DNA from: Escherichia coli O157:H7
Lineage (GTDB): Bacteria > Pseudomonadota > Gammaproteobacteria > Enterobacterales > Enterobacteriaceae
Direction: 5' to 3' (one strand)
Assembly (NCBI RefSeq): GCF_013167455.1
Contig: NZ_CP038328.1
DNA: 64,000 nucleotides
Shown in pieces: positions 3,001-6,000 of the stretch. The position numbers were made by a program. Each line of letters opens with the position of its first letter. Positions within the stretch are counted from its first letter, which is position 1.

Positions 3001-6000
3001 GAAGGATGACAGTCACATTTAAAAAATATTTAATCTATAGATCACAATGTAGGGTCATGGAATATATGTATACAACTATTTTCTTCTTCACTTTTAATTA
3101 TCGTATTCATTATAAAACTAAGTTAAAAAACTCCTGGAGAGTGAGTTATTAATATATTTTTAAATGAAATTAAGTTATCATTCATCGATGCATTTTATAG
3201 AATCATCAATGGCCATAATAGTACTATTAACTCTCAATTTTATATTTTTATCATCACTACAAATATTAACTGAATTTATATCAATGATTTTTTTTATTCT
3301 TATCTTTTATTTTATTTACTGTTTCAATGCAATCAGCGGCAAGTTGGAGTGGATTTAGATTTTTCAGATATGGTCTTATGATCTTTCCCTTACTTAATAA
3401 ATAGCATGTATAGGATTCGGAAAGTCCAGCATCTATTTTGTATCTCATTATATTAGATAAGGATGTGAGAAATTCCTTGTTATCATTCGCAGCCATATAT
3501 GCCAGTCCGAGTTCAGCCTCTGCGGCCTTACAGGCAAAATAGCTTAGTGAACACGCTTTTCGTCCCTCTTTAGTACTGGCTGATATTAGTGCCCATAATA
3601 TTGCTTTGTCTGCCAAATCTAACTCTCTCTGAAATTGTCTTGCAGTAACTGCACTCGCAGAAATAGAGAAAAAAATACAATTGTTAATAACCTTGCCATA
3701 TTTTTTAGTCCGTAACTGTTAATGTGCTATCTGGCTCTGAAAATATTAACTCATTTAATTTTTGCATGTCATTAGATAAACCAGTTATACAACCCTCGGA
3801 ACAGAATCGAGGTCCTAAAGACGGACCAAAAGCGTTTAAACAACTATGTATTGAAAATCCATTGCGATTATAAGTTCCTGTATTAACTGACGGTACTAAT
3901 CGTATGCCGTCAGGTTTTCTATTGCTTGCTCCCGGGTCATTAACATTCCAACTCCATAGGCCTTGAGATATTGGCCATCTATTTATAAATGTGTACAACG
4001 GGGATTATTTTTACATTGCATATTATTACCAGAAGCGACTGGAATACTAAGCACATCATAAAAATTATCATCACATGGTATATCTGAAACACACGAAAGC
4101 ATACCTAAAGTTATGCTGTATAAACAGGTGGCTAATCCCAAGGGGATCGATTCCAGAAATCGGGTTCAACGGATACTGATAAAAATTCCACCTACCTTCC
4201 AGCCCAATCGGAGCCTGAGTGTTATACCGCCCCTGCTGCGGTTAATGTTACCGATAATAGTTATAGTACAGCCCTGATTCATCATCATACTACTGCTGCG
4301 GCAGTCTGATGAACTATTGCTTTTACGGATTCTCCTTATTCTTCCTTCTATCCATTCGCTTTAGCTTTTTGAGCTCTTGAAGTTTGCTCTTTGCATCAAT
4401 ATTACCGTTATTTACAGCGAATTCCATCCAATAAATAGCTCTATTCAAATTATAATATTCTGATAATGTTGGATTTGTATCTGATAAAAAGACCCCATAA
4501 TTAAACTGCGCTGTAACATTCCCCTGAGATGCTGATTTTTCTAAGTATCGCAATTGTTTGTAAATGTTATTTTTAGTAAAGCAGTAATATTGATATAGTC
4601 GAAATGATGCCTCTGAATCACCATGTTGTGATTTATACTTCAGTTTCATCAACTTTTCTTCACTTAAATCATAGGTCATTGCTGTAGACCCCATCATACT
4701 TTCGTTTTGTTTTATTTTCACATCAGCACCATGCAATTGACAAATAAAAGAGAAATAAAAAAATAGTAACAAGCATGCTTTCATACATCTACAACCTATC
4801 TTATATCACTGGGTTTTTCTGGCGTACCTTGCATATTAGAAATGGGGTGCCCAGATGGCCCATATGTTATCCAATTACCAAGGTCTTTTGTTGTTATAGC
4901 CATTAGATCCTTATTTGAATTAAGGTTCGTTGGTGCTGTTAGCACTGTATCCATTTTTAACTTACCATTAGTTCCTCGCCCCCACCACGTCCATAGCGTG
5001 TCAGGTCCTATTACATTTGTATGTAACTCTTTAGCTAATTGGCTAGCAAATGAATTTTGTCCTTTACCTGTATTACAAGAAAATAACCAAACTGTCATCC
5101 CATCTTTATAATTCCCATCAAATTTAATTAGATATGCTAGATCTTTAGCTGTCATGATACTGCGCGTTGCGGATTCAATAGATGTGGGGGTACCATGCCC
5201 CCCGATTGTGAAAACGCCTGGGATATTAATCTCATCAGCTACAGAATGGATAAGATCACTTTCGGGGTATAAATTTATATCAACCAAACCTTGCGGATCT
5301 ACATTTATGACCGGATTCAACGGATACTGATAAAAATTCCATCCCCCCTTCAGTCCAATCGGATCCTGAGTGATATATCGCCCGTGCAGCGGGTCATAAT
5401 AGCGGTGGCGGTTGTAATACAGGCCGGACTCCTCATCATACTGCTGCCCCGGCAGGCGGATAAGCTGCTGCAGCTGATGCGGGTTCTCTTCATTCAGCAG
5501 GTTGCCCCATTCATCGTATTCTGCGCACCATTCTGTTGCCCCTTCCGCACTGATAAGCGCCAGCGGCAGGCCGCGATGGTCGCAGTGGTACAGGTGGATT
5601 TTTCGCGCCGGCGTGTATACCGGGTCCATCTGGCTTTGCATCTGCGCCACAGTCAGGCCGCACGATGCCAGCCAGCGGCGGCTTTCCTCACTCACCCGGT
5701 CAGCCAGGATTTCACTTTCCAGCCGGTCGAGCATCTGCACCAGCACCGGCGGGAACACCACACTGCCACCGTCTTCGCCGCCGGACTGCTGAAGCGCATC
5801 CGCCAGGCTGCGGCGCTGCGTTTTCGCCAGCTCACCGGTGGCGGTTTCAACCCTGATGAGTGGCGTGAAGCTCCCCGGCTGATAAATCGTCTGGATGCGG
5901 GTTCTGTCGTTCTGTATTGTGGTCAGCCGGTCGCCGTCCCAGCCGTACCAGGTCACTTGCGGTTTCCGTGACAGCGACATCCAGCCCGTCAGGTCCCGTT

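Follow-up and report, generated by a model that had tools for sequence, protein, structure and literature searches.

The 64,000-nucleotide stretch of Escherichia coli O157:H7 DNA analyzed here (the window; contig NZ_CP038328.1 of assembly GCF_013167455.1) contains the rhsA locus, whose features are read on the minus strand (Table 1). It comprises a gene for an Rhs protein followed closely by the small gene yibG, and the C-terminus of this Rhs protein, hereafter the tip, is very probably a small cysteine protease toxin of the caspase fold (clan CD). A 1-kb query spanning the tip and yibG is 100% identical to many O157:H7 chromosomes, in which RefSeq names the two genes 'RHS element core protein' and 'yibG: sel1 repeat family protein'. 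In annotated O157:H7 chromosomes the array is flanked by yibF/selA on one side and by yibH/yibI/mtlA on the other. The Rhs protein displays the architecture of the YD-repeat toxins of type VI secretion systems (T6SS), namely a DUF6531 domain, RHS repeats and a core that runs to a DPxGL motif, after which a variable tip of different composition begins. As evidenced by domain searches, NCBIfam RHS_core matches the protein at E 3e-252 and Pfam places DUF6531 at residues 46-123 (6e-18) together with RHS repeats, while a PAAR match to residues 2-20 is weak (E 0.06-0.2). The junction DPQGL occupies residues 1243-1247, leaving 162 residues behind it. Residues 1-1247 share 97.6% identity with K-12 RhsA, but the likeness stops at DPxGL and the sequences are unrelated beyond. 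The GC (guanine plus cytosine) content changes at the same border, from 0.62 in the core to 0.39 in the tip and 0.32 in yibG. These data agree with an earlier, sequence-only reading of this DNA, which had described an AT-rich tip of 162 residues after DPQGL that is unlike the K-12 RhsA tip, and a 153-amino-acid (aa) gene 11 nucleotides (nt) downstream. A search of the window showed that neither the tip nor yibG recurs in it.

The tip contains the two motifs that characterize clan CD peptidases, a His-Gly pair following a hydrophobic block (VFTIGGHG) and, later, a Cys following a second hydrophobic block (VWLFSC). The two predicted catalytic residues, His1277 and Cys1317 of the Rhs protein (His31 and Cys71 of the tip), are exactly 40 residues apart, which confirms the spacing of about 40 residues between the GGHG and the Cys noted in the sequence-only reading. 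Cys71 is the only cysteine of the tip. An indexed protein search with the tip returned just E. coli copies and relatives from Salmonella with 44-47% identity. An exhaustive search of 1.84 billion representative proteins using a four-sequence profile yielded 739 relatives at E ≤ 1e-3. The main alignment comprises 106 homologues that are 26-53% identical to the query tip, and in it His31 and Cys71 are the sole invariant columns, with Gly32 kept in 105 sequences. When the alignment is restricted to the tip (47 sequences), His31, Gly32 and Cys71 are the sole invariant columns. The family consensus reads [FY]-[TS]-V-G-[GA]-H-G-x-P and G-x-x-V-x-L-x-[SA]-C-x-T-G, followed by a SFAQQLA helix, and the HG...C pattern is kept in 162 of 183 domain copies. 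Of 141 representative proteins, 122 end with the domain, and 59 show a DPxGL-like motif directly upstream of it. Two to five internal copies are found in 20 representative proteins of 869-7376 aa.

In order to place these motifs in a fold, we predicted the structure of the tip with AlphaFold. The model built from four sequences was poor (predicted local distance difference test, pLDDT, of 70) and was left out of the fold search. From the 106-sequence alignment we obtained a model with a pLDDT of 89.3 and a predicted template modeling score of 0.87. It has an alpha/beta fold in which His31 stands just after the beta-strand formed by residues 25-29 and Cys71 just after the one formed by residues 65-69, consistent with the alpha/beta sandwich common to solved clan CD members. 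The best structural match in the PDB is the T6SS effector Tce1 from Pseudomonas aeruginosa (DUF4347, 9QPE) with a score of 8.5, followed by the cysteine protease domains (CPDs) of Vibrio cholerae RtxA (8.1) and Clostridioides difficile TcdA (7.7) and by gingipain K (7.2). TcdB, CHAT proteases, legumain, clostripain, glycosylphosphatidylinositol (GPI) transamidase and caspase-9 match with lower scores. Foldseek ranked an RTX cysteine protease domain first, though at E 0.011, and non-Rhs relatives in AFDB50 are labelled 'DUF4347' or 'Peptidase C80'.

Profile comparisons point in the same direction. In a first profile run on the PDB, matches to the Rhs core carried by the homologues predominated, and the tip-only alignment was used instead. 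The HG and SC motifs then align on H178 and C220 of sunflower legumain (asparaginyl endopeptidase, 6AZT), which we take to be its catalytic residues, at a marginal E of 0.043. Some family members show weak Pfam matches to Peptidase_C80, DUF4347, Peptidase_C13 and CHAT. Peptidase_C80 is reached by 1-2 homologues at E ≤ 1e-3 and by 5-8 at E ≤ 0.1, DUF4347 by one homologue at 5e-5 and by 6-10 at E ≤ 0.1. The sequence-only reading had deduced a clan CD dyad from the spacing of the two motifs; the invariant His and Cys, the strands preceding them in the model and these profile matches support that deduction. Overall, the clan CD fold of the tip is well supported, and its nearest relatives are the C80 domains of MARTX and large clostridial toxins and the DUF4347 effector Tce1. 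Its exact subfamily within clan CD is less certain, because the tip matches neither the Peptidase_C80 (PF11713) nor the DUF4347 (PF14252) model of Pfam.

YibG begins with a hydrophobic leader (MKACLLLFFYFSFICQLHG) from residue 1 to about residue 19 (nt 4784-4728), after which about two degenerate Sel1/TPR-like repeats follow. Pfam detects TPR_27 at 3e-4, and Sel1-like repeats were reported at 4e-5 with another tool (PMC7216683). Homologues of YibG with 144-164 aa and 21-42% identity are encoded directly downstream of diverged tips in Salmonella enterica subsp. salamae (locus L003) and in four metagenome loci (L005, L007, L008 and L010). All five possess a hydrophobic leader, and two of them have lipobox-like motifs, LSSC and LPGC. 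A further homologue lies downstream of the tip in Cupriavidus sp. SK-4 (L012), and a YibG-like protein thus follows the tip in all six loci examined that are proteobacterial or metagenome contigs with an Rhs-type tip. The small downstream gene therefore stays with the domain across divergent loci, as toxin and immunity genes do, and this conserved synteny lends weight to the proposal of the sequence-only reading that the Sel1-like gene is an immunity candidate. Judged from these sequence features, YibG is likely the exported immunity protein of the tip. In L007 and L012 we also observed VgrG and DUF6531-Rhs genes upstream of the tip, which ties the tip family to type VI secretion. In the literature yibG (z5018) is given as 132 aa (PMC7216683), a length that implies a later start and a protein without the hydrophobic leader. 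The 153-aa RefSeq start is supported by the homologues, since these all carry leaders.

The sequence-only reading had called the tip strain-specific, which does not hold, as DNA of the tip and yibG is present in 3507 of 5426 complete E. coli genomes. In K-12 the same tip forms the orphan pseudogene yibJ, which is followed by yibG, and the two constitute the second cassette of the K-12 rhsA array. What cuts yibJ short is no frameshift but one nonsense change, CAA to TAA, at tip residue 83 (about 7920-7925 of the K-12 locus L002, corresponding to about position 5041 of the window), and the remainder of the K-12 tip and yibG is nearly identical to O157. Beyond yibG, the window holds the remains of a further, decayed cassette composed of an Rhs core remnant, a toxin remnant and an immunity gene remnant. 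Positions 3001-3450, between the Imm57 remnant and yibH, are very AT-rich (GC 0.23-0.25) and represent the yibU pseudogene region of K-12. Small open reading frames (ORFs) for very hydrophobic peptides occur within it, for example one of 64 aa at 3164..3358 on the plus strand.

Table 1 Features of the rhsA locus of E. coli O157:H7, in positions of the window.
Feature	Position	Strand	Basis or remark
Rhs ORF, 1409 aa	4796..9025	-	ORF call
Rhs delivery part, residues 1-1246: PAAR-like short N-terminus, DUF6531, YD-repeat shell, DPQGL junction at its end	5288..9025	-	NCBIfam, Pfam
C-terminal tip, 163 aa from the L of DPQGL: predicted clan CD (cysteine protease domain/DUF4347-like) cysteine peptidase domain	4799..5287	-	
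Predicted catalytic His codon (Rhs H1277, tip H31, in GGHG)	5195..5197	-	Invariant in 106/106
Predicted catalytic Cys codon (Rhs C1317, tip C71, in LFSCNTG)	5075..5077	-	Invariant in 106/106
Rhs stop codon (TAG)	4796..4798	-	Sequence
Spacer of 11 nt from Rhs stop to yibG start	4785..4795	-	Sequence
yibG, 153 aa, Sel1/TPR-like candidate immunity protein	4323..4784	-	Starts 11 nt past the Rhs stop
Orphan Rhs core remnant (pseudogene), start of the next decayed cassette; counterpart of K-12 yibS	4071..4289	-	RefSeq, on the identical O157 locus: 'RHS repeat-associated core domain-containing protein', internal stop, missing N-terminus
Orphan toxin remnant, 97 aa, weakly Tlde1/YkuD-like; counterpart of K-12 yibW	3705..3998	-	Pfam Tlde1_dom 9e-3, YkuD 4.5e-2
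Imm57 immunity gene remnant; counterpart of K-12 yibV	3281..3616	-	Pfam Imm57 1e-48; RefSeq 'Imm57 family immunity protein, frameshifted'

Several members of the family elsewhere deserve mention. Outside the window, E. coli, O157 included, has another Rhs tip belonging to this family (AFDB A0A9P2VKJ6 and A0A376S9M4; P0048-P0050 in our set), which is 33-35% identical to the tip described here. That second tip probably belongs to z0268, the PAAR-Rhs protein of the T6SS island, whose tip has been matched to the RtxA cysteine protease domain (3FZY; PMC7216683). Among the proteins with several domain copies, giants such as P0028, P0030 and P0136, which are apparently actinobacterial, have some copies without the His and the Cys, and in P0028 this loss was seen in internal copies. 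P0136 additionally contains a RelA/SpoT-like stretch among its companion toxin modules. Relatives of the tip family in AFDB carry pierisin-like, TNT or LT-A domains.

We propose the following sequence of events for the O157:H7 protein. The shell formed by DUF6531 and the YD repeats, with its PAAR-like N-terminus, would enclose the tip, and the aspartyl autoprotease of the Rhs protein itself would free it at DPQGL; autoprotease activity at DPxGL is known for Rhs proteins. A T6SS, which O157:H7 possesses according to the literature, would carry the particle into neighboring bacteria. Inside the target cell, His1277 and Cys1317, which are invariant and lie in the predicted clan CD fold, would act as a catalytic dyad and cleave a peptide or amide bond. 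The target would most probably be located in the cell envelope or periplasm, because YibG and its homologues beside diverged tips carry an export leader or a lipobox. YibG, as a short solenoid of the Sel1/TPR type, would bind the tip and shield sibling cells. Taken as a whole, we consider this reading, with a clan CD peptidase tip delivered by Rhs, activity on an envelope or periplasmic target and YibG as immunity protein, to be probable, with some reservation. More tentatively, and with rather less confidence, the pair may represent an as yet untested class of interbacterial toxin, a minimal CPD-like protease independent of inositol hexakisphosphate (InsP6) that is delivered by Rhs, cuts a protein or peptide in the Gram-negative periplasm or envelope and is blocked by a co-exported Sel1-like protein of two repeats.

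Toxins of this kind have been predicted in silico before, and the O157 pair is a new member of a computationally known class. Zhang, de Souza, Anantharaman, Iyer & Aravind (2012; PMC3482391) described 'Tox-Caspase' as a caspase-like domain with His and Cys that includes releasing peptidases and, when C-terminal, toxins. According to the same work it occurs together with RHS repeats and T6SS and forms arrays in Streptomyces giants, in which some copies lack the dyad. The O157 tip resembles this class in its caspase-like alpha/beta fold with conserved His and Cys and in being the last domain of an RHS-repeat polymorphic toxin of the T6SS type, and its family shares the internal repeats in giant actinobacterial toxins, with the dyad lost in some. 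On the other hand, Tox-Caspase was defined purely computationally, and it was listed with Imm36 and Imm57 as immunity families rather than with a Sel1-like protein. Imm57 is listed as partner of Tox-LD-peptidase and, in gamma-proteobacteria, of Tox-Caspase (PMC3482391). The latter link may be an artefact of arrays such as rhsA, where Imm57 belongs to the next cassette.

The tip itself has also been looked at before. An in-silico study of enterohemorrhagic E. coli (EHEC) EDL933 from 2020 found no motif in RhsA (EDL933_4854), obtained an I-TASSER match to 3HO6 with a template modeling (TM) score of 0.73, read this match as 'small-GTPase inhibition' and named the downstream TPR/Sel1-like protein RhsAI, a putative immunity protein (PMC7216683). 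The match was misread, as 3HO6 is the cysteine protease domain of TcdA. The term 'uncharacterised' that the sequence-only reading had applied to the module is thus correct as far as experiments are concerned and incorrect for computational work, which has discussed both the family and the pair (PMC3482391; PMC7216683). Our literature search found no experimental work on the tip, yibG, yibJ or any antibacterial clan CD toxin, and none on Tox-Caspase or on Peptidase C80 with T6SS.

Comparison with characterized systems shows where the O157 pair differs. Tce1 and Tce2 entered the literature in 2026 as putative CPD-like proteases (PMC13323088). Tce1 (PA0256, DUF4347; PDB 9QPE) and Tce2 of P. aeruginosa show just 12% identity to the tip, their dyad residues are 50-54 residues apart compared with 40 in O157, they are loaded in the lumen of Hcp (Hcp3) instead of an Rhs shell, and they are without an immunity gene, whereas the O157 tip has yibG. 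In the case of the C80 domains of V. cholerae RtxA/MARTX and C. difficile TcdA/TcdB (3FZY, 3EEB and 3HO6), the matched chains are about 205-250 aa long against 163 aa for the tip, and the tip is terminal with a candidate immunity gene beside it, while the C80 domains lie inside their proteins, where eukaryotic InsP6 activates them for autoprocessing. The terminal position of the tip domain argues against such an autoprocessing role here. On the immunity side, PA5086-PA5088 of P. aeruginosa, the Sel1-like periplasmic T6SS immunity proteins against PldB, are likewise short exported Sel1-type solenoids encoded beside a T6SS effector, a parallel already drawn for RhsAI (PMC7216683). They neutralize a phospholipase, whereas YibG partners a predicted protease and has about two degenerate repeats. 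A cysteine protease acting as interbacterial toxin with an immunity protein is exemplified by Cpe1, which cleaves GyrB and ParE (PMC12136450); it differs from the tip by a papain-like fold, with Cys before His, and by a cytoplasmic target.

A number of observations weigh against the reading we favor. The E. coli tip alone matches no Pfam family even at E ≤ 10, no NCBIfam model and no PDB sequence, and its tie to C80, DUF4347 and C13, as far as sequence goes, is transitive and weak. The Foldseek list also includes nitrilase-superfamily proteins. These were rejected on account of high root mean square deviation, lower probability and the lack of a conserved Glu or Lys, for since only His, Gly and Cys are invariant, the Glu-Lys-Cys triad of nitrilases has no counterpart in the tip. 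A serine hydrolase acting through the Ser before the Cys was likewise rejected, Ser70 being replaced by Ala in 22 of the 106 sequences. On the side of the partner protein, the Pfam Sel1 (PF08238) match to YibG is insignificant (E 1.2), and export leaders were judged just by hydrophobicity and lipobox patterns. In the Cupriavidus locus (L012 3920-3985) a leader-like peptide (MKLLFRLYFFSLS) overlaps the stop of the tip, but in a reading frame other than that of the YibG homologue. Eight consecutive T adjoin it, and the arrangement may reflect either a sequencing frameshift or a true loss of export. Two WXG100-associated loci, one from the actinobacterium Marisediminicola (L013 4175-4552) and one from a metagenome contig (L014 4055-4483), encode a different, leaderless partner of about 125-142 aa. 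The two partners are related to each other (BLASTP E 2e-5), Pfam gave no match for them, and they look like a separate candidate immunity family. Because of this leaderless partner a periplasmic site cannot apply to every branch of the family, and as the WXG100 loci carry another protein family, the immunity partner and perhaps also the compartment depend on the branch. Finally, Tce1, the nearest solved relative, and its paralogue Tce2 are non-toxic in E. coli and have no immunity gene, while Tce2 is toxic in yeast in a Cys-dependent manner (PMC13323088). Relatives of the tip may therefore be aimed at eukaryotes.

Four other explanations were weighed. The same Cys-His fold could act on a non-protein or peptide-conjugate substrate in the envelope, either as an amidase or endopeptidase of peptidoglycan stem peptides or as a transpeptidase or transamidase like the legumain-type ligases and GPI transamidase. 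Exported immunity candidates are usual for cell-wall-directed T6SS effectors, the clan CD structure matches include peptide ligases and GPI transamidase, and Tox-LD-peptidase has been found with RHS repeats (PMC3482391). In addition, the neighboring orphan cassette is of the peptidoglycan-targeting Tlde1/YkuD type, indicating that Rhs tips at this locus can work in the periplasm. To our knowledge, however, no clan CD member hydrolyzes peptidoglycan, the nearest structures (CPDs and Tce1) are protein-cleaving or autoprocessing enzymes, and no substrate is pinpointed by sequence, which leaves this explanation unlikely. We regard as slightly less likely still that the tip is a CPD-like effector for eukaryotic cells or the bacterial cytoplasm, comparable to Tce2, OspB or the toxin CPDs, with YibG as a chaperone, an adaptor or an unrelated protein. 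The closest solved relatives are indeed eukaryote-directed or InsP6-activated, the lack of toxicity of Tce1 and Tce2 in E. coli and the leaderless partners of the WXG100-associated branch fit such a role, and a link between the EHEC T6SS and interaction with the host has been reported (PMC7216683). Against it stand the tight coupling of the tip to a co-diverging small exported protein in 6-7 loci of proteobacteria or of metagenome contigs of the Rhs type, which is the signature of an interbacterial toxin/immunity pair, the classical Rhs array with orphan toxin/immunity cassettes, and the absence of InsP6 from bacteria.

Far less probable are the two remaining explanations. If the domain were solely a self-processing, releasing peptidase and no toxin, the role suggested for internal caspase-like copies of giant polymorphic toxins, this would agree with the 20 proteins in which internal copies stand upstream of other toxin domains and with Zhang et al., who call most versions releasing peptidases (PMC3482391). 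In the O157 Rhs protein, though, the domain is last with nothing downstream to free, the protein has its own DPxGL autoprotease, and a dedicated partner gene follows the tip, so that we give this explanation very little credence. It is similarly improbable that O157:H7, like K-12, retains the cassette as an inactive relic. The nonsense mutation in the orphan yibJ of K-12 and the pseudogenes in the downstream cassettes of the window speak for decay, and the EHEC T6SS is reported to be repressed in vitro (PMC13141884). Yet in O157 the Rhs protein runs over its full 1409 aa in one frame with an undamaged tip that retains every conserved residue of the family, yibG is intact, and the sequence is 100% conserved over many O157 genomes.

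If the reading of the tip as an Rhs-delivered clan CD protease with YibG as its immunity protein is true, the pair would be the first antibacterial protease toxin of clan CD amenable to experiment. Tce1 and Tce2, the only T6SS relatives studied so far, seem to be directed at eukaryotes. The clan CD reading would also correct the published interpretation of the EHEC RhsA tip as a 'small-GTPase inhibitor'. The points of interest are the likely periplasmic action, the Sel1-type immunity, the spread through most E. coli including K-12 and the correction of this misreading. The family is large (739 representative clusters) and essentially unannotated, and a dedicated profile would better annotate many Rhs and WXG-type toxins. 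If true, the finding would further make it worthwhile to look for the envelope substrate on which a caspase-fold enzyme acts and for the mode of inhibition by a Sel1 solenoid. The pair belongs to the best-studied bacterium, being present in roughly two thirds of complete E. coli genomes, and two K-12 genes would gain a role from it, yibG as an immunity gene and yibJ as a decayed toxin tip.

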